Below are positions 53,862-61,375 of a stretch of DNA of 64,000 bases, one piece after another. Made by a program: the position numbers and the translations under genes. Under the pieces are notes generated by a model. It ran no database searches and was not told the origin of the DNA. It was given only the letters and a program-made list of their open reading frames with translations. Each line of letters starts with the position of its first letter. Position 1 is the stretch's first letter. This DNA comes from an uncultured SAR86 cluster bacterium (lineage in GTDB: Bacteria > Pseudomonadota > Gammaproteobacteria > Magnimaribacterales > D2472): assembly GCA_902594005.1 (NCBI GenBank), contig CACJKN010000001.1:17700-81699 (forward strand), read 5' to 3'.

Positions 53862-54701
53862 TTATTTCAGGTGCTCAATTAATAGTGTTGGTACATTACA
53901 AGTATGAGATTTAATAGTAGCTACCAAAGTCCCTTTCTTAAGCCCATCTTTTATTGGTGTTACTTCAACGTTATTGCTAACCAATCTTTTGCAGGCATCC
54001 TCAATTGAATCTACTTCCCAAGCGAGCCCCCAGAGCTCATCAGCTGATTCTTTTTTATCTTTATCTTCAATAACCTCGATTGTTGTAGCATTTGTTCTAA
54101 AAAATAGCATTCTTCTCTTCCAATGCTCTATAGTTTTATCTAATGCTAATCTTATTTTATAAACATCTCTATAAATGCTTATAAAGCTATCTGCATCCTG
54201 TGTATTTATTACTACATGGTCAAGTTTTTTTACTTTTGAGGGATCTTGATTTTCATACTTTGAGAGACCTCCCTCAGTATGTTCAATGATAAAGATAAAT
54301 AACTCTCTGCTGAGAGCACTTGGCAAAAAAATATTTTTCCATCTTCTTATCTTTCCATCTTTCTCGTTGACTGTCTCACCCGAACTTATCTCAACTGCAT
54401 GCCCATTCTTATTTAATGCTTCTTTAGTGTGTTCTATATTTTTTGTTCCAAGGACGATCCCTGCTAAATGATCACCATTCTCTGCAAGTAAAGTATTAAC
54501 AAGCTCTGTTCCGGGCCCTACATCACATGGCGAAAGTAGCTCCAAGTATGTATTCTCAAAATTAAATAGAGCATTTCTTGTTCCTAGCTCATTGTGCTTA
54601 CCTTTCCAGCAGGGGGTAATGCCAAGAATTTTTTCATAGTCACTTATAGCCTGATCTAGATCTTTCACTGCGATTATTAAGTGGTCTACCGAAGAAATCA
54701 T
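53862..54701 (-). CDS. Two-domain VOC/glyoxalase family protein
   Basis: DHLIIAV...GTRNA...YLEL and a second LDHVVI...IEVI module. Confidence 0.8.
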   Translation of the reverse strand: MISSVDHLIIAVKDLDQAISDYEKILGITPCWKGKHNELGTRNALFNFENTYLELLSPCDVGPGTELVNTLLAENGDHLAGIVLGTKNIEHTKEALNKNGHAVEISSGETVNEKDGKIRRWKNIFLPSALSRELFIFIIEHTEGGLSKYENQDPSKVKKLDHVVINTQDADSFISIYRDVYKIRLALDKTIEHWKRRMLFFRTNATTIEVIEDKDKKESADELWGLAWEVDSIEDACKRLVSNNVEVTPIKDGLKKGTLVATIKSHTCNVPTLLIEHLK

Positions 54702-54708
54702 TTTTATA

Positions 54709-55242
54709 TTAATCCTCCAAGTTACTTATTTTTTTAATGAATAGCTTTGCACCAAGCGAAACATTATCGACCCAATCATCCTTTGCTTCATTGTCAGCAT
54801 TATCAGAAATAAACTTAAAACATCTAAAATCAATATTTTTTAATTTGCATACTTTTGCGATGGCAAAGGCTTCCATATCAACGATATCTGTTTTTAGAGT
54901 TGGTGTGCTGGTGACGAACTTATCGCCAGTGCCGCATGTCACTCCCTCTCTTCCAAAGGTTATCTCGATATCTTCTTCAAATGGAGTTTGTCCCACCTCA
55001 AAACCAAGCGGTGAAGCATCCATATCTCTTTGAAAGAAGCTTGAAACCTCAACAAGTCCTGTTATTTTTTCATAAAGGGATCCGGCTGTTCCAAAATTTA
55101 TTATTTGTTTTGGTGAGTGTTTTTCTATTGCATTTAAAGTATTGAAGACGGCATTCACTTTACCAACGCCGATGTATTCTATTTTATGATCAGGGAGGTC
55201 AGATCTTTTAAGCTCATCTTCAATTGCAACCAAAATAAGCAT
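54709..55242 (-). CDS. Short MTA/SAH nucleosidase / purine nucleoside phosphorylase-family protein
   Basis: GVGKVNA, NFGTAG, QRDMDA, TGDKF, VDMEA, KFISDNA. Confidence 0.85.
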   Translation of the reverse strand: MLILVAIEDELKRSDLPDHKIEYIGVGKVNAVFNTLNAIEKHSPKQIINFGTAGSLYEKITGLVEVSSFFQRDMDASPLGFEVGQTPFEEDIEITFGREGVTCGTGDKFVTSTPTLKTDIVDMEAFAIAKVCKLKNIDFRCFKFISDNADNEAKDDWVDNVSLGAKLFIKKISNLED

Positions 55243-55295
55243 TCTTACTTCCAGCTTCCTTTTCTATTAACTTCTTCAAGACTAATCATCTTCTT

Positions 55296-55622
55296 TTAAT
55301 TAATTGATTTATTAATATTTACAATCGTAACACCGATTACAACAAGGAAAAGTCCAACAACAGATTGCCAGTTAAGAGCTTGCTTGTAAAAAATATAACT
55401 AAGCAAAGCTATCGTAAAGACTCCTATACCTGACCAGCTAGCATAAACAATTGATAGGGGCAGTTTCTGCGTAACTATAGCAAGGAAGTAAAATGATATG
55501 CCATAAGAAAAAAGTAAGATTGAGGTTGGAATTAATTTTGTGAAATTTTGCGATGCTGGAAGAAGCATCGTACCCAGCACCTCAAATATTATTGCTAAAA
55601 AAAGAACAATATAGGGGTTCAT
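55296..55622 (-). CDS. SMR (small multidrug resistance/DMT) transporter
   Basis: AIIFEVLGT (membrane Glu), PLSIVYASWSGIG; four TM helices. Confidence 0.9.
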   Translation of the reverse strand: MNPYIVLFLAIIFEVLGTMLLPASQNFTKLIPTSILLFSYGISFYFLAIVTQKLPLSIVYASWSGIGVFTIALLSYIFYKQALNWQSVVGLFLVVIGVTIVNINKSIN

Positions 55623-55640
55623 TAAAATTAAAGGTCTTTG

Positions 55641-56039
55641 CTAAACAACATCGTGGCAATCACAATCAAGCTCTTTACATAGCTGAAAGTTTTTTGTGTG
55701 CGCATAAACTACAAGAATAGATCCCATCAATGTAAAAATAATTACAGATGTTTCTGTTAAAAAGCTTTCCGATAATGCTGTAGCTGTGAGAACACCTAAA
55801 CCTGCCAGACCAACTAAAAATACAGCATAATCATTATGGTTTGAAACACCAGTAATTAGCGCATAAACACTTATTGGGATAGCTAGAAATAAAATAGCCC
55901 AATGAATTAGCTCATTATCTATGGAGAGTGCCAACGCTCCTGAGGTAACAATTAAAAAAGAGGGTACCAACAAACAATGCAATGCACATGCTATTGATAA
56001 TCCAGCAGCGAACTTATCAGTAATTGGATGAGTTTTCAT
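55641..56039 (-). CDS. MerC-domain membrane protein
   Basis: DK...SIACALHCLLVP, E.IH, YAH..N; Cys/His tail CKELDCDCHD. Confidence 0.78.
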   Translation of the reverse strand: MKTHPITDKFAAGLSIACALHCLLVPSFLIVTSGALALSIDNELIHWAILFLAIPISVYALITGVSNHNDYAVFLVGLAGLGVLTATALSESFLTETSVIIFTLMGSILVVYAHTKNFQLCKELDCDCHDVV

Positions 56040-56139
56040 AGTTAAGATAATTATACAATACTTGTCAATTATTCATTGTAACCTTTACTTCTCATTATAA
56101 AGATGATAAGTTTGCGTTACATTTTTTTAGGAGAGATTT

Positions 56140-56535
56140 ATGGGTCAAGGATTAATAGTGCCAGTATTAGGAATTATGACGGGAATTATAGTTCCTGTAG
56201 CAGTTTTTGTTTGGTTATATTTTGAAAGCAAAGATAAGAACAAAACAATATTAGAGATATCAAGAAATATAGATGATCCCTCAAAAGTAGAGGATTTAAT
56301 AGGGTTGCTTGATGAAAGAAAAAAAGAGCCAATTGATTATAGAAGAACAGGGGTAGTAACTTTATTTGTTGGAATTGGTTTATTTCTATTTGGAGTTTTC
56401 TTTCTAGGCTCACTTTTAAAGGGAGTTGGTGCATTAGTGGCTGCAATTGGTGTTGGTCAAATTATTGCCGGCTACTTATATCCAAATACTTCTGGAGAAA
56501 TTAATAAAGCCGTAGAGGATTTTGAGACGAATTAG
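56140..56535 (+). CDS. Hypothetical membrane protein (DUF6249-like)
   Basis: TM helix, soluble loop, then two TM helices (RRTGVVTLFVGIG); AGGAGA SD. Confidence 0.6.
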   Translation: MGQGLIVPVLGIMTGIIVPVAVFVWLYFESKDKNKTILEISRNIDDPSKVEDLIGLLDERKKEPIDYRRTGVVTLFVGIGLFLFGVFFLGSLLKGVGALVAAIGVGQIIAGYLYPNTSGEINKAVEDFETN

Positions 56536-56751
56536 GTGGGAAAGGATCACGCAAAACTTCTTAATCGCCTGCAAGAATTAAGGAAGCAAGCTGGATTAAC
56601 TCAAGAAGAATTGTCTAATAGCGCAGAAGTTTCCAGAAAAAGTATAAATGCAATTGAGAATGGTGTTTATGTGCCCTCCACTGTACTTGCCTTAAAAATT
56701 GCTAGAACACTTAAATGCAAAGTAGAAGATCTTTTTAGGCTTCCTAATTGA
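56536..56751 (+). CDS. XRE-family helix-turn-helix transcriptional regulator
   Basis: NRLQELR, LTQEEL, VSRKSINAIENG.YVPSTVLALKIA, VEDLF. Confidence 0.92.
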   Translation: MGKDHAKLLNRLQELRKQAGLTQEELSNSAEVSRKSINAIENGVYVPSTVLALKIARTLKCKVEDLFRLPN

Positions 56752-56760
56752 AGGATAGCT

Positions 56761-56791
56761 TTGACTTAGAGTAATATCTAAGTTTTATAAT
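56761..56791 (+). promoter_or_regulatory. Sigma70 promoter with 19-bp spacer and internal dyad (MerR-family operator architecture)
   Basis: TTGACT(56761-66)-N19-TATAAT(56786-91); perfect inverted repeat ACTTAGA-N6-TCTAAGT (56764-56783). Confidence 0.55.
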
Positions 56792-56811
56792 ATTTTAAGT
56801 TTGGAGAATTT

Positions 56812-56967
56812 ATGAATAAAAAATCTAAATCTTCTTGGAATACTGGAACACTAATTGCAGTTGGTGTAGCTATAGGGGCAGGACTGTTTGCTGCAACAAG
56901 TGAACCACTATGGATAGCTGTTGGCATCGGAATAGGTGCGGCTCTGAGTTTGAGGAATAGAAGGTAA
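56812..56967 (+). CDS. Small 2-TM glycine-rich membrane protein (51 aa)
   Basis: GGAGA SD; MNKKSKSSWNTGTLIAVGVAIGAGLFAATSEPLWIAVGIGIGAALSLRNRR*; GxxxG helices flanked by positive charges. Confidence 0.75.
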   Translation: MNKKSKSSWNTGTLIAVGVAIGAGLFAATSEPLWIAVGIGIGAALSLRNRR

Positions 56968-56972
56968 TAAAA

Positions 56973-57068
56973 ATGCAAACGCATGTAAAAAGCTTTATTA
57001 GATCGATTGTTGTTAATGCAATTATGTGGGGCGTTATTTTTTATTTCTTTTTTGAGTTTATTTTTTGA
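56973..57068 (+). CDS. Small single-TM peptide (31 aa)
   Basis: MQTHVKSFIRSIVVNAIMWGVIFYFFFEFIF*; fills the gap between neighbours (5 nt and 3 nt spacing). Confidence 0.45.
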   Translation: MQTHVKSFIRSIVVNAIMWGVIFYFFFEFIF

Positions 57069-57071
57069 TCG

Positions 57072-57545
57072 TTGAATAGTTTTAGATTTAATTTTTTTTG
57101 CTCAATATTTGTTTTATCTTCATGTGTATCAAATACAGTAAATGTAAAACCAAATACTGAAGAGTATTCACAACTAGTTGGTACGCCAGTATATATAAAA
57201 AGATCATCCGATAAAGATATTAATACTTTTGAGGATGAGTTAGATGAATGTATAAAAACATCTAATACTAGAGTAAATAGGTCTTCAAAAGTTGGCATTG
57301 GTTTTGGGTCGTATTTGGCATTAGGAGGGCTTTATATGATTGCAACTGCAAGTGGAGTCTTTGCTCCTATTTATGTTGCGGCAGGTACTGTAGGGGGCGT
57401 CTTGGGAGGCTCAACAATTTTTGTTACAAGGGCGACTAAGGAATTTAGAGAGTATTCCAGTCTTGAGAGTTGCTTAGAAAAACAAGGACATGATGTTGTT
57501 TTTTATGATGATGGTAAAGCAAAAAAAGATAAAAGTGATCTTTAG
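57072..57545 (+). CDS. Hypothetical lipoprotein with glycine-zipper-like segment
   Basis: Lipobox LSSC; DLDEC-like ELDEC...CLEKQGH flanking a Gly-rich hydrophobic region. Confidence 0.6.
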   Translation: MNSFRFNFFCSIFVLSSCVSNTVNVKPNTEEYSQLVGTPVYIKRSSDKDINTFEDELDECIKTSNTRVNRSSKVGIGFGSYLALGGLYMIATASGVFAPIYVAAGTVGGVLGGSTIFVTRATKEFREYSSLESCLEKQGHDVVFYDDGKAKKDKSDL

Positions 57546-58579
57546 TTTGGTAATTGAGTGATCCACTCTCTTACCATCTCAACTGCTTCCTGATGGGTTA
57601 AAGCCCTGCCAGACTCTGGCATCATAATTCCAGGATCCATTGATTCCATTCTATAGAGCAAAATAGATTCATCAGGTTTGCCTGGGACTATAGAGTATTT
57701 GTTACCCCCGCTGCCCCTTCCTGTTGCTACAGGTTTTTTATAAATGCCTAAATTTATATCTCTTGTCTCTACTAAGCTTAGATAAAGCCCGGTTGAGTTT
57801 GCATTGCCTGTTGGTGAGTGGCAGTGGCCACAATTTACATCTAGATAAGACCTTGCTCTATCATTAATATCTTTAGTTTCATCTCTCCAATCAACTGGTG
57901 ATACTAAATCCTCCGGGAAACTATCAATTATTTCTTTTTTCATCCAATAGGCTAGCTGGTTAAAATCTCCTTCTTTAAAGCTAAAATCTTTATTTATGTT
58001 TTTTGCTTTTGGCCCTATTGGAGTAATTGCATCTTTAGCAGCATGGCATTCTTTACATTGATTAACGTTTGGGACTCTATATCGCACCTGCCTTTCGTCG
58101 CCCATAAAGTCTACCCAAGATGCATTAATAGTTTTTCCAGCTATTTTTTTATAGGCTTCATTTTGTTGCTCATTCCAAGCATAAGAAACCGCTTCCCAAC
58201 CATCTTTTTTTCTCAACAGGAGCCGCGTCTCTAAAAGCTGTTTCCCAAGATCTGGATTCCTTTCATCAACTGGGTAATAAAAAGTTTTTATTAGTGCAGA
58301 TCCTTCTGGAAAATTGAAAACCCAGTCTTTCACATATGATGCTTTGGTATTATTAGGAACATATACCCATCGTTGCTTATAAGAATAATCAGAAAATAAT
58401 GTTGAAATCAGTTCATATGGAATAACTTTTTCATGTGGTTCTTGAGCGGAATCATCAAGAAAAAACTCAAATTCTGATAATTTATCAGGAAAGGAGTCAG
58501 CTAAAATTAAATTATTATTAACTGAGAAAGTATTGGCGCTGAATATTAATAAAAATAAACAGCAAACTGCGTTTCTCAT
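57542..58579 (-). CDS. SO2930/HNE_0200-family diheme c-type cytochrome
   Basis: LFSDYSYKQR, KTFYY, ETRLL, heme motifs CKECH and CGHCH, ARSYLDVNC, MMPESGR. Confidence 0.85.
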   Translation of the reverse strand: MRNAVCCLFLLIFSANTFSVNNNLILADSFPDKLSEFEFFLDDSAQEPHEKVIPYELISTLFSDYSYKQRWVYVPNNTKASYVKDWVFNFPEGSALIKTFYYPVDERNPDLGKQLLETRLLLRKKDGWEAVSYAWNEQQNEAYKKIAGKTINASWVDFMGDERQVRYRVPNVNQCKECHAAKDAITPIGPKAKNINKDFSFKEGDFNQLAYWMKKEIIDSFPEDLVSPVDWRDETKDINDRARSYLDVNCGHCHSPTGNANSTGLYLSLVETRDINLGIYKKPVATGRGSGGNKYSIVPGKPDESILLYRMESMDPGIMMPESGRALTHQEAVEMVREWITQLPN

Positions 58580-58584
58580 TTTTA

Positions 58585-59802
58585 TTAAAATGTTTCTATA
58601 TTTATCTCTTTAAGAGGAGATATCTCTCCTTTAAAGTCATCTTTGTTTGTATTGGTTGGGTCAGAAAATCCGAGCATATATTTAATTGGCTTAATTGTAA
58701 GAAAGCTTGCATCCTCCTCAACAACAACAAGCTTCTCATCTTCTGGTTGACCAAATATTATTTGTGGCAGAGGAACAATGCCATCCCAGAAGATATCTGG
58801 CATTTTTCCACCACTGATTTCATACAATGCTTTTGCTAAGTCACCTGTCTCAATATCGGGATCAAAGCCACTTGGTCCATAAGTATTTCCATGAACCTGA
58901 ATATTTTTTGGGTGGGGATAATAGTTGGAATCATCTGTCTCATCACCATAAGAAACAATTGATAGGTTTACAGTTCCATTACCGCTCATAAGATTATTAA
59001 AAATTTCAACATCTGAATTTGCCATGATAATAATTCCTGTCCCTCTTGGAACCTCGCCAACAATATTTCCTTCGGGTGCAAAATTATCTGTATCGTTATC
59101 AATAGATTTATTATCAAAGACTCTTATGTGATGCCCACCTTGTTGGGGCAGGTCTGGCAAGTCAAAAACTAAGATGCCGCCAGTGTTGTGGGAAGCTATA
59201 TTGTTATATACATCTGCATAATATGAATTTTCAATCTCAATACCTGCTACGTTATATTGGGCAATGCTGTTTCTAACAATTATATTTTTTGATTGGCCTA
59301 CATATATACCAGCATCTGAAGCTCCAATTGCAACACAACCATCAATTAGAACATCCTCTGATTCAACCGGATAAAACCCATAAGCTCCATTTGTGCTTTT
59401 AGGTCCACCAGTCCATTCAGTTTTAAGGTTTATCATGTTAATGCCTTTAGCCCCTATTACTTTTAGAGCATCTCCTTTTGCATCGAGTATTGAAAAATCC
59501 CTGAGGGTAACTCTGTCTGACGTAACGAGTAAGCCTTGAGCACCAGATTGTTGATTTTTAAAATCTAAAATTGTGTTGACGATACCCTCACCTTTTACAA
59601 TAACGCCATTTACATCAAGAGATAATCCGTCTTCAAGCTCATAATAGCCACTTCTGATTGTTAAAGTGTCGCCCTCTTCCATTAGAATCAATGCTTCCTG
59701 CAGTCTTTCTTGAGCATTGGGGCCTGGCTCTATATAAACGTCTTTTGCATAAAGGTTAAGAGCAAATAATAAAGGAATAGAAAAGAAGAGAACTCTTTTC
59801 AT
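58585..59802 (-). CDS. Parallel beta-helix repeat protein (the type usually paired with the SO2930-family cytochrome)
   Basis: NGAYGFYPV, GASDAGIYVGQS, NVAGIEIENS, NTGGILVFDLP, NFAPEGNIV. Start placed at MKRVLFF (signal peptide). Confidence 0.85.
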   Translation of the reverse strand: MKRVLFFSIPLLFALNLYAKDVYIEPGPNAQERLQEALILMEEGDTLTIRSGYYELEDGLSLDVNGVIVKGEGIVNTILDFKNQQSGAQGLLVTSDRVTLRDFSILDAKGDALKVIGAKGINMINLKTEWTGGPKSTNGAYGFYPVESEDVLIDGCVAIGASDAGIYVGQSKNIIVRNSIAQYNVAGIEIENSYYADVYNNIASHNTGGILVFDLPDLPQQGGHHIRVFDNKSIDNDTDNFAPEGNIVGEVPRGTGIIIMANSDVEIFNNLMSGNGTVNLSIVSYGDETDDSNYYPHPKNIQVHGNTYGPSGFDPDIETGDLAKALYEISGGKMPDIFWDGIVPLPQIIFGQPEDEKLVVVEEDASFLTIKPIKYMLGFSDPTNTNKDDFKGEISPLKEINIETF

Positions 59803-59815
59803 GTTTTTCAAATTT

Positions 59816-59863
59816 TTACTTTGAGCAGCAGGAGCACTCGCAGCAATCGCAACAATCACACAT
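59816..59863 (-). CDS. Cysteine-rich leaderless micro-ORF MCDCCDCCECSCCSK (15 aa)
   Basis: ATG TGT GAT TGT TGC GAT TGC TGC GAG TGC TCC TGC TGC TCA AAG TAA. TATAAT lies 6 nt upstream of the ATG; the stop is 13 nt before the next ATG. Confidence 0.7.
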   Translation of the reverse strand: MCDCCDCCECSCCSK

Positions 59864-59869
59864 GGTTGA

Positions 59870-59875
59870 ATTATA
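59870..59875 (-). promoter_or_regulatory. -10 hexamer TATAAT positioned for a leaderless transcript starting at the poly-Cys ORF
   Basis: Minus strand TATAAT-TCAACC-ATG; weak TTCAAT 17 nt upstream. Confidence 0.55.
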
Positions 59876-59886
59876 TACTAACTTGG

Positions 59887-60420
59887 TTATGTATTGAACG
59901 CTTCTCTTTTGCTTGTGATCAAATAGTAAATAACAGATAAGATAAGGGCTGATAACATAACTTGTGGGCCTATTAGCTCGAACAAAGTAAAGGTACATGC
60001 TCCTAAAATAAATAAATAACCTATTTCTTTTTTGCTTCCAATTAAGCCCTGTCTAAGCGCAGCCTTAAAAATAAAATAATTTACAGGCAAATATAGCAAA
60101 ACTCCTGTTATGGCTCCCGGGCTAAAATCTAAGAAGTAGAAACTGAAAAAAACATGAAAGAAAGCATTAACTATCTGCGTGGTCATCAAAAAAAATAGAA
60201 TAATATGTGCGCTCGGCTTATTTCTCTTAATAGAGTGCAAAAAAATCATTATCAACAAGACTGTTAAAAGCCTTATAAGGACTTCTTCTGTTGATAAAGG
60301 ATTGTTATCTAGAAAGTATGAAAGCCGCCATTGTCTGAAATTAAAAATTATATGTTCTTCAAAATGATGAATCACATATACAAGAGGGCTTAATATTATA
60401 AGGTTTTTAAATTCTTTTAT
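59887..60420 (-). CDS. HXXEE-domain membrane protein (probable ATA start at 60420)
   Basis: HHFEEH motif, NAFFH, FSPG. The frame extends upstream of GTG 60375 as (I)KEFKNLIILSPLVYV, the expected first TM helix. Confidence 0.75.
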   Translation of the reverse strand: MKEFKNLIILSPLVYVIHHFEEHIIFNFRQWRLSYFLDNNPLSTEEVLIRLLTVLLIMIFLHSIKRNKPSAHIILFFLMTTQIVNAFFHVFFSFYFLDFSPGAITGVLLYLPVNYFIFKAALRQGLIGSKKEIGYLFILGACTFTLFELIGPQVMLSALILSVIYYLITSKREAFNT

Positions 60421-60854
60421 TGATCTTTTCTCTTAAAATAAAGCTTCATTGATCGGCCATCTTCTTCAGAAGGCGTTTCCCAAACTAGAAACCCATTTTC
60501 AATACTTATCGGCAAGGGTTCTGAATTGTTATTGTCACAAGTGAAGGTGCCAGCACTTGGGTTGATTGAACACATGGTTTTTTCACCAAAAGCTTCTATC
60601 TCGACTTTGTTGTCTACAATGTCTAAGATAGGGATCATGTTTGCGATCATTCCACACATTGCGGAGCCCATTCCCATAGCAAGAGCAGCACCAAATGGAT
60701 TTTCATCCAAATCATCTGTCACATCTGCCATCATTGTGCTTTGGCATGACTGAGTCGTTAGCTCATTATCAATAACCCAAAGCCCCTCATAAGGAGAACT
60801 GTTTGAGCAGCCAAGAATTGAAAAGCTTATTATGATTGCTAATATTTTTTTCAT
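60417..60854 (-). CDS. Hypothetical lipoprotein
   Basis: MKKILAIIISFSILGC lipobox; YEGLW lipocalin-like start. Confidence 0.65.
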   Translation of the reverse strand: MKKILAIIISFSILGCSNSSPYEGLWVIDNELTTQSCQSTMMADVTDDLDENPFGAALAMGMGSAMCGMIANMIPILDIVDNKVEIEAFGEKTMCSINPSAGTFTCDNNNSEPLPISIENGFLVWETPSEEDGRSMKLYFKRKDQ

Positions 60855-60922
60855 TTTGTGACTATAACTAATTTTTGCTGAAAATTCACTTCAGTCTTTA
60901 GAAGCAAAGCTTTAATTGAATT

Positions 60923-61375
60923 TCAATCAGCTTTTATGGTCTGGGCACCAACATCTGCAGCAATAGAGTTTGGAACAAGCATAGTTAAAGCATAGTGAGT
61001 TATTTTCCATTCTCCGCTTATTAGATGAACAACGCCCGTGCCTCTGCAATGTCCCAACTTTTCATTAAAAAGTATTTCATCAAACCAACGAATATCGCCG
61101 CCTCCTTCCCAATTGCGCTCGATGACTTCGTAAGTCCAGCCGTGTCCATCTGCAAAGGCTGGTTTAGCGTAGGATTTAAATTCTTGTATATTCCAGCGTT
61201 CGGTTTTGTCTGTACCTAAAAACACAGCATCTAAACTATAACGATCAAAATATGCCTCAAAATTTCCCTTATGTGCATCTTCGTGGAGACCATCTAACAA
61301 TGCATCGATATTTGTCTGATCTTCTGCATTAGTATTAAAAACTATTAAAAAACTTACTAATATTAATTGTTTCAT
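60923..61375 (-). CDS. NTF2/SnoaL-like family exported protein
   Basis: YF...AVFLGTD..ERW, GWTY, WFDE.L, CRGTGV, WKITHY. Confidence 0.82.
   Translation of the reverse strand: MKQLILVSFLIVFNTNAEDQTNIDALLDGLHEDAHKGNFEAYFDRYSLDAVFLGTDKTERWNIQEFKSYAKPAFADGHGWTYEVIERNWEGGGDIRWFDEILFNEKLGHCRGTGVVHLISGEWKITHYALTMLVPNSIAADVGAQTIKAD

Follow-up and report, generated by a model that had tools for sequence, protein, structure and literature searches.

This analysis concerns a very small poly-cysteine open reading frame in a 64,000-nucleotide stretch of DNA, hereafter the window, from an uncultured bacterium of the SAR86 cluster (GenBank assembly GCA_902594005.1, contig CACJKN010000001.1, positions 17,700 to 81,699). 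The small open reading frame (sORF) was first noticed in the letters of the window, and the original prediction placed it at the head of an operon for a beta-helix protein and a cytochrome. Three roles were proposed for it: (a) a ribosome-stalling cysteine sensor, (b) a minimal gene-encoded metal chelator and (c) a substrate or partner of the downstream proteins. Genomes of the same order and marine metagenomes were searched for related sORFs, and the sORF is a conserved, single-copy gene with a coding signature, a fixed promoter geometry and a variable gene context. The features of the locus are as follows, in the direction of transcription.

59887..60375, minus strand: gene for an HXXEE-domain membrane protein, upstream of the sORF (open reading frame list and Pfam scan); the gene stops 23 nt short of the sORF ATG, and the -10 box comes just after it.
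59870..59875, minus strand: -10 promoter hexamer TATAAT, separated from the sORF ATG by 6 nt (sequence; the TAnnnT position is kept across the family).
59864..59869, minus strand: 6-nt spacer TCAACC, without a Shine-Dalgarno (SD) sequence, which makes the A of the ATG the point where transcription is expected to begin (length fixed, bases variable).
59816..59863, minus strand: putatively leaderless poly-cysteine sORF of 15 codons plus TAA, MCDCCDCCECSCCSK (read in the sequence, with comparative data).
59803..59815, minus strand: 13-nt A-rich gap from the sORF stop to the beta-helix ATG, with neither an SD sequence nor a terminator (sequence).
58585..59802, minus strand: TIGR03805 parallel beta-helix protein of 405 amino acids (aa) with a signal-peptide-like N-terminus (E 1.3e-121).
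57542..58579, minus strand: TIGR03806 SO2930-family diheme c-type cytochrome, the second gene of the pair (E 1.2e-110).
55641..56039, minus strand: MerC-like membrane protein, co-oriented, 3.8 kb downstream of the sORF (CALHC motif and C-terminal CKELDCDCH).

The start codon of the sORF occupies positions 59863..59861 and its stop codon positions 59818..59816, and the codons after the ATG read TGT GAT TGT TGC GAT TGC TGC GAG TGC TCC TGC TGC TCA AAG TAA. Eight of the 15 codons specify cysteine (six TGC and two TGT), with three CC doublets, and the G+C content is 23 of 48 nt compared with 34.3% for the whole genome. Cysteine makes up 0.99% of the codons in the long open reading frames (ORFs) of the same genome, and the sORF is the sole place in the six frames of the window where eight cysteines fall within 12 residues. 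Recounting reproduced the figures of the original prediction for cysteine codons and G+C, the placement of TATAAT 6 nt before the ATG and the gap of 13 nt. The program-made ORF list masks the sORF, as had been claimed, both within a spurious 60-aa ORF (59816..59998) and under an extension of the beta-helix protein to 424 aa from a GTG at 59859. The beta-helix protein starts at the ATG at 59802 and not at this GTG, since the extension is not open in three of seven loci of the same genus (405 aa from the ATG). The TIGR03805 match begins at residue 34 of the ATG-started protein.

Searches of related genomes showed that the sORF is more than a chance match. A pattern back-translated from codons 2-10, allowing up to two mismatches, matched 52 of the 139 genomes of the window's family, once in each. 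When the whole order was searched, a second pattern matched 76 of 266 genomes and an ATG-anchored pattern with all spacer codons free matched 84 of 266; the union of these two order-wide searches, by tally, comprised 89 of 266 genomes, or about a third. Reversed-pattern controls, which belong to these three genome searches only (139, 266 and 266 genomes), gave 0 matches each time. The matches of the ATG-anchored pattern were distributed over three of the order's four families (f1, 64 of 138 genomes; f2, 7 of 50; f3, 0 of 47; f4, 12 of 30). Five variants (in G012, G017, G059, G089 and G260) were found only by the second pattern and were missed by the ATG-anchored one. A match of the second pattern in G151 lay inside a long ORF and was discarded as a false positive. 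At least 116 marine metagenome contigs matched the ATG-anchored pattern, and viral contigs gave 0 matches to it. A looser pattern applied at the level of the class, to 401 sampled genomes, recovered only TGY trinucleotide repeats or off-frame readings of long ORFs, and none of the 12 non-repeat loci inspected among these had the architecture of the sORF family. As the class-level matches were repeats and off-frame readings, the genomes searched gave no family member from beyond the order. A search of the literature, mostly without subscription journals or supplements, returned no description of such a peptide.

The sORF occurred once per matching genome with the sole exception of G241, which had two matches. 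The two copies in G241 (L110 = G241:C19 and L111 = G241:C3) encode different peptides, MCDCCKCCECSCCSK and MCDCCNCCKCSCCSK.

Pooling of genomes and metagenomes yielded 168 instances. When the ORF was compared together with the 20 nt upstream of it, 133 were distinct, and these comprise 99 different ORF DNAs and 52 different peptides. The peptides are 13-19 residues long and share the core M-C-x-C-C-x-C-C-x-C-x-C-C, followed by zero to six residues that usually end in [S/A/T]-K. Positions 1 and 2 of the cysteine codons were invariant and their third positions alternated between T and C, giving the conservation a three-base periodicity. In 132 distinct rows, the residues between and after the cysteines (positions 3, 6, 9, 11, 14 and 15) were drawn solely from D, E, K, N, S, T, Q, A, P and G. 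At position 6 the peptides have Asp, Ser (from both AGT/AGC and TCT), Lys, Asn or Thr, and at position 9 they have Glu, Gln or Lys, or in genus g4 Asn or Thr. In one variant (L105) each of the three charged spacer positions is occupied by Lys, which implies that acidity is not required. Aromatic residues were absent from 50 of the 52 peptides, the exceptions being two variants in which one cysteine is replaced, by Phe in one and by Tyr in the other. One variant had a premature TGA. The stop codon was nearly always in the same place while its form varied (TAA in 96 rows, TAG in 30 and TGA in 5). Codons 11-16, the stop, the ATG and the promoter lay outside the patterns used for the 139 genomes and for the second search of 266 genomes, so their conservation is independent of the way in which those loci were found. 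The expectation that the sORF is genuine and conserved with synonymous variation was thus borne out, with matches in all three pattern searches, none in the controls and wobble at third positions.

In 125 of 132 distinct instances a TAnnnT hexamer spanned exactly -12 to -7, counted from the A of the ATG, most often as TATAAT (57 rows) or TATACT (47 rows). The six bases between the hexamer and the ATG carried 0.04-0.63 bits in 50 loci, yet their number was fixed. Neither an SD sequence nor a conserved -35 element was seen in the upstream regions of the family. Bacterial transcription usually starts about 7 nt past the -10 hexamer, and at that distance +1 falls on the A of the ATG. The genome of the window itself serves as an internal control. 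Of its 774 ORFs with 150 aa or more, 32 had a -10-like hexamer that ended 6 nt before the ATG and 13 had one at 7 nt, over a background of 1-8 at other spacings, and SD-like 4-mers peaked 5-8 nt upstream in only 141 of the 774. Given this excess at the 6-nt spacing, leaderless genes seem to be a regular feature of the organism. The sole family member with a leadered arrangement (L121; G095:C25, sORF at 1693-1740) has TTGACA, 17 nt, TATAAT and a leader of about 20 nt with a GAGAGG SD sequence before the same poly-cysteine ORF. Exchange of a leaderless for an SD-led start is sensible only if the ORF is translated, which argues that it is. The leaderless reading of the original prediction fits the fixed -10 geometry, and the peptide would be made from a leaderless mRNA that starts at the A of the ATG, judging by the DNA of the family.

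In contrast to the promoter, the gene behind the sORF changes from one genome to another. Twelve of the 133 distinct instances reached the end of a contig and one had no ORF behind the sORF, leaving 120 that could be evaluated. The first genes behind the sORF in these were distributed as follows.

BD-FAE hydrolase: 14 of 120
MerC: 13 of 120
Beta-helix protein (TIGR03805): 13 of 120
HXXEE: 8 of 120
Methyltransferase: 7 of 120
22 further labelled clusters (27 labelled in all): 45 of 120
Unclustered: 20 of 120

The downstream gene was co-directional and close in 113 of the 120 instances, with a median gap of 64 nt, and convergent in the other 7. The neighbours are a shuffled set of small accessory genes (DoxX, SMR, HXXEE, GFA, MerC and DUF6249 with an HTH_3 regulator), together with SnoaL-like (SnoaL_3) proteins, cupins, the BD-FAE hydrolase, PEMT/ICMT, methyltransferase, desaturase and sulfatase genes. 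The surroundings have the appearance of a flexible islet (window 53862-61375; loci L028-L077) in which gene order differs by genus and which also contains PNP_UDP, glyoxalase and Zn_peptidase_2 genes.

These data do not support the sORF as the head of a beta-helix/cytochrome operon. The two genes were adjacent in 13 of 120 instances, and the cases that came from genome-derived loci were all in the window's genus. Even there, G007 carries the sORF but gave no match to the beta-helix gene, and G008, G009 and G011 gave neither the sORF nor a beta-helix match with this query. The check proposed with the original prediction, a search upstream of beta-helix orthologues for a conserved cysteine-rich sORF, found one in 1 of 26 loci of other genomes, the closest one (L001, 93% identity). 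Restriction of the sORF to a single close relative, as these 26 loci would indicate, was a misleading outcome of centring the search on the beta-helix gene, to which the sORF is not tied. Proposal (c), in which the peptide partners the beta-helix protein or the cytochrome, was left without comparative support. The pair is probably transcribed from the sORF promoter in the window's subclade only, and we treat the arrangement as a secondary, lineage-specific one behind a pre-existing microgene. Convergent to the cytochrome gene, with a 4-nt overlap of 3' ends, is a plus-strand ORF of 157 aa (window 57072-57545), which matched no Pfam family. A match of this ORF to NheB scored 21.7 against a threshold of 500 bits and was regarded as meaningless.

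MerC is the one recurrent neighbour of the sORF; everything else around it is reshuffled. A MerC homologue was present within the available flanks (median 1.8 kb upstream and 1.5 kb downstream) of 33 of the 133 distinct instances, and all 33 were on the same strand as the sORF. The distance was 200 nt or less in 22 instances, with MerC behind the sORF in 12 and in front of it in 10. By hand tally, MerC was co-oriented and no more than 6 kb away in 18 of 38 sORF-positive genomes (37 that are at least 85% complete and the window's own), which represent six genera of three families. Between the sORF and MerC of the window come the beta-helix and cytochrome genes and two plus-strand genes, and the MerC-like protein keeps its cysteine motifs, CALHC and the C-terminal tail CKELDCDCH. 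The Asp/Cys pattern of this tail resembles that of the sORF peptide. MerA exceeded the family cut-off in 0 of 58 genomes (best score 346 against 454 bits), and MerR, MerT and MerP were not named in Pfam scans of the representatives of the neighbour clusters. Fifteen of 16 MerC neighbourhoods from sORF-negative genomes were without a cysteine-rich sORF; the sixteenth, in G040, contained a variant outside the earlier patterns, and this variant prompted the wider, ATG-anchored pattern.

Heavy-metal-associated (HMA) domains were present in 44 of the 104 better genomes, always in frames of 124-166 aa and none of the length of a P-type ATPase. By hand tally they occurred in 11 of 37 sORF-positive and 33 of 66 sORF-negative genomes (Fisher p = 0.06); nothing was drawn from this comparison, as kin are not independent. 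One HMA gene (G063:C1:1301765-1301935) lies about 0.9 kb from an sORF and MerC.

The reading that we favour is a stand-alone, mini-metallothionein-like peptide that works with the MerC-like protein, to which we assign a probability of roughly 0.5. Transcription would start at the A of the ATG and the resulting leaderless mRNA would be translated. Met1 would then be lost, as a small second residue permits, to give a peptide of 14 residues that presents eight thiols in the fixed pattern CxCCxCCxCxCC with polar separators. Such a peptide could bind soft metals (Cu(I), Zn(II), Cd(II) and Hg(II)) as thiolate clusters in the cytoplasm, and it may be the acceptor or sink for metal imported by the MerC-like membrane protein, mercuric reductase not having been found. 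Among the three original proposals, the minimal chelator (b) fits best because the peptide pattern is conserved and the recurrent neighbour is a MerC-like metal transporter; metal binding and the hand-off from MerC are inferred.

Several observations weigh against this reading. It depends on composition and one genomic association, and the likeness to metallothioneins is one of composition and cysteine pattern only, the peptide being below the length at which homology searches work. The sORF is carried by only about a third of the genomes. The presence of MerC does not track that of the sORF, its position does: MerC (PF03203) was found in 85 of 104 genomes of the order that are at least 85% complete (and over the cut-off in none of 14 control genomes), and in 20 of the 38 sORF-positive genomes it is far off or on another contig. 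Shared ancestry can also inflate the linkage counts. Since co-directional genes are close behind the sORF in most instances and a terminator-like hairpin followed it in only 6 of 50 loci, a leader-type role stays in contention. The RNA libraries add a further point. Four marine RNA-library runs, from four studies, were compared, all as contigs, and contigs from two of the studies cover the sORF (X4, 59643-59907; X11, 59770-59890). They continue upstream of the proposed start, to 59907 and 59890, and do not display a 5' end at the ATG; 5' ends are not legible in contigs, DNA carry-over is possible, and the libraries neither show transcription nor fix its start.

Lastly, the synonymous sites of the sORF look more constrained than the peptide alone requires, which also counts against a role confined to the peptide. 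The beta-helix genes of the window and L001 differ at 150 of 1218 nt (118 of 405 third positions), and the 45 coding nucleotides of their sORFs are identical (P ~0.006). Likewise, an RNA-library contig with 28 differences in 265 nt had none inside the sORF (P ~0.005). The choice of cysteine codon depends on position, the 5' ones being TGT and the last TGC. Glu-9 is encoded by GAG in 103 of 116 rows, compared with a genome-wide fraction of 0.32, and Lys-15 by AAG in 76 of 114 rows, compared with 0.27. Leaderless initiation, translation selection on a highly expressed message or a role at the level of the RNA could each cause this constraint. Relative to the genome, the sORF over-uses G- and C-ending codons (GAG, AAG and TGC).

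Two alternatives stand next to the metallothionein-like reading, and we consider both unlikely. One of them is proposal (a), a leaderless cysteine-sensing leader ORF of the mycobacterial type, in which ribosomes slow at the cysteine codons when charged tRNA-Cys is scarce and thereby alter downstream expression. In the window it would act on the beta-helix/cytochrome pair, through stalling or through termination and reinitiation across the 13-nt gap. The leaderless layout and the three CC doublets are what such a leader would have, and the close co-directional genes are consistent with it, the more so as only 9 of the 113 had an SD-like motif. A hairpin with a T-tail after the sORF was limited to the 6 of 50 loci mentioned above, with no consistent element, which also leaves room for a leader. 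Reduced sulfur may be limiting in this organism: its genome, which is 79% complete, has no sulfite reductase (NIR_SIR) domain, and the best hit to the CysK model scored 84 against a cut-off of 351 bits. In a genome of that completeness, the lack of a sulfite reductase or CysK match is a mere hint of dependence on reduced sulfur. Also in favour of this alternative, the report on mycobacterial polycysteine leaderless sORFs describes that these can change context (Canestrari et al., bioRxiv 10.1101/834739).

A general cysteine-sensing attenuator is nonetheless disfavoured because the downstream gene varies across more than 27 families or is convergent. The 27 labelled clusters and the 20 unclustered genes show no theme of cysteine metabolism, and the proteins encoded are not rich in cysteine (median of means 0.82% in 42 families, compared with 0.99% genome-wide). 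The mycobacterial model, as far as the accessible text of the source sets it out, involves cysteine-related downstream genes, a multi-locus regulon and, at the locus studied, an RNA duplex over the SD sequence (bioRxiv 10.1101/834739). The sORF described here is nearly always present in a single copy per genome, which leaves no multi-locus regulon. At the window junction, where RNA structure was computed, the first 100 nt fold at -17.9 kcal/mol (z -1.28), with 23 of 200 shuffled sequences as good, and no pairing across the next start went beyond a 4-bp helix. Moreover, the exact cysteine spacing, the polar spacers, the length and the terminal Lys are kept in three families, and a sensor that counts codons needs none of these. 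As a general mechanism, proposal (a) is thus contradicted by the genes that lie downstream, by the number of copies and by the RNA structure; attenuation keeps a small probability, especially as a local addition in the window's subclade.

The other alternative, which we rate no higher, is a close variant of the metallothionein-like reading. Here the peptide would not be a bulk chelator but a dedicated partner of MerC, either a cytoplasmic metallochaperone or gate to which the cysteine tail at the C-terminus of MerC passes the ion, or a regulator of MerC activity. Co-oriented adjacency on either side of MerC in three families and the similarity of the CKELDCDCH tail to the peptide motif speak for such a partnership. 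Against it, MerC is located elsewhere in over half of the genomes that carry the sORF, and most genomes with MerC lack the sORF (MerC in 85 of 104, the sORF in roughly a third).

It is less probable still that the peptide is the precursor of a cofactor or of a product resembling ribosomally synthesized and post-translationally modified peptides, or that it serves in thiol redox chemistry or sulfur storage, with processing enzymes whose genes lie at other loci. A short, very cysteine-rich peptide with an otherwise unassigned function invites this explanation, but no maturase is conserved beside the sORF in the 133 instances, where MerC is the only conserved neighbour, and MNIO and SPASM domains were not found in the 79%-complete genome of the window. 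Fifteen residues leave no room for a leader peptide, and the genome size of 1-1.8 Mb also speaks against this explanation. Finally, a chance TGC/GCA-rich stretch of low complexity or a non-coding RNA or DNA element is essentially excluded: the identity of all 45 coding nucleotides to the closest relative hints at constraint at the nucleotide level and the translation is read from the letters alone, but 0 control matches against 52-84 genomes, the three-base periodicity, Ser from two codon families, a stop of three forms in a fixed place and the SD-led variant all speak against such an origin, and Rfam gave no match at E up to 1 and the RNA no significant fold.

The sORF is missed by gene callers although it is among the most sharply conserved small features of the region, and it offers a clear, testable example of leaderless expression in the Gammaproteobacteria. 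What looks like a textbook amino-acid-sensing leader peptide is here more probably a functional microprotein. If the peptide binds metal, it would represent a new and exceptionally small class of metallothionein, one that has a transporter as its natural partner, and would be relevant to how ocean bacterioplankton deal with mercury and trace metals and to the design of minimal chelating peptides. The metallothionein-like reading, if true, would influence how Hg, Cd, Cu or Zn is held in bacteria of the surface ocean, and would show that a whole class of proteins can be reduced to 48 nucleotides by genome streamlining.

Metallothioneins are small cysteine-rich proteins that hold metals in metal-thiolate clusters, and include the 25-residue copper metallothionein of Neurospora crassa, the bacterial SmtA/BmtA proteins and the mycobacterial MymT; the alpha domain of the mammalian proteins contains CC-x-CC and C-x-CC motifs. 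The sORF peptide shares with them a very low mass, an extreme cysteine content in CC and CxC motifs (8 of 15 residues, in a pattern found in 52 variants), the near absence of aromatic residues (50 of 52 variants), polar or charged spacers and a predicted cytoplasmic location without a signal peptide. It differs in being much shorter and denser than these examples, in its putatively leaderless expression and in its genomic link to a MerC-like transporter. To our knowledge, the peptide would, if it is a metallothionein, be the smallest gene-encoded one yet seen. Phytochelatins and the gene-encoded synthetic phytochelatins, (Glu-Cys)n, that are used in engineered bacteria also alternate acidic residues with cysteine, as the sORF peptide does. 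The latter, in contrast, is natural and ribosomal, has CC doublets and not a strict (EC)n repeat, and tolerates Lys, Asn or Ser in place of the acidic residues.

In mer operons, the importers MerT, MerP and MerC hand Hg(II) to MerA. The arrangement described here is similar in that a MerC-family membrane protein with conserved cysteine motifs is found beside a putative cytoplasmic, cysteine-rich acceptor, and different in that no MerA was found in 58 genomes and the acceptor would be a 15-residue peptide. A metal importer is also paired with a cytoplasmic thiol sink in the importer-metallothionein combinations engineered for bioaccumulation, as described in the accessible portions of two reports (PMC3180271 and PMC10317975). 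It is tempting, though at somewhat less than even odds, to regard the peptide, as a leaderless, eight-thiol metallothionein of 14-15 residues, and the MerC-like importer as a two-gene soft-metal module of an abundant group of streamlined marine bacterioplankton without mercuric reductase.

The mycobacterial polycysteine sORFs, to the extent that the available text of their description allows comparison (bioRxiv 10.1101/834739), have the leaderless layout that is predicted for the SAR86 sORF, and are alike in being short, in having consecutive cysteine codons, in usually coming first before co-directional genes and in going unannotated by gene callers. The SAR86 sORF is unlike them in that its downstream genes are not cysteine-related and differ by genus, in that it is a single-copy gene, in that no SD-sequestering duplex was found at the window junction, and in that the pattern of its peptide is kept across three families of a gammaproteobacterial order.

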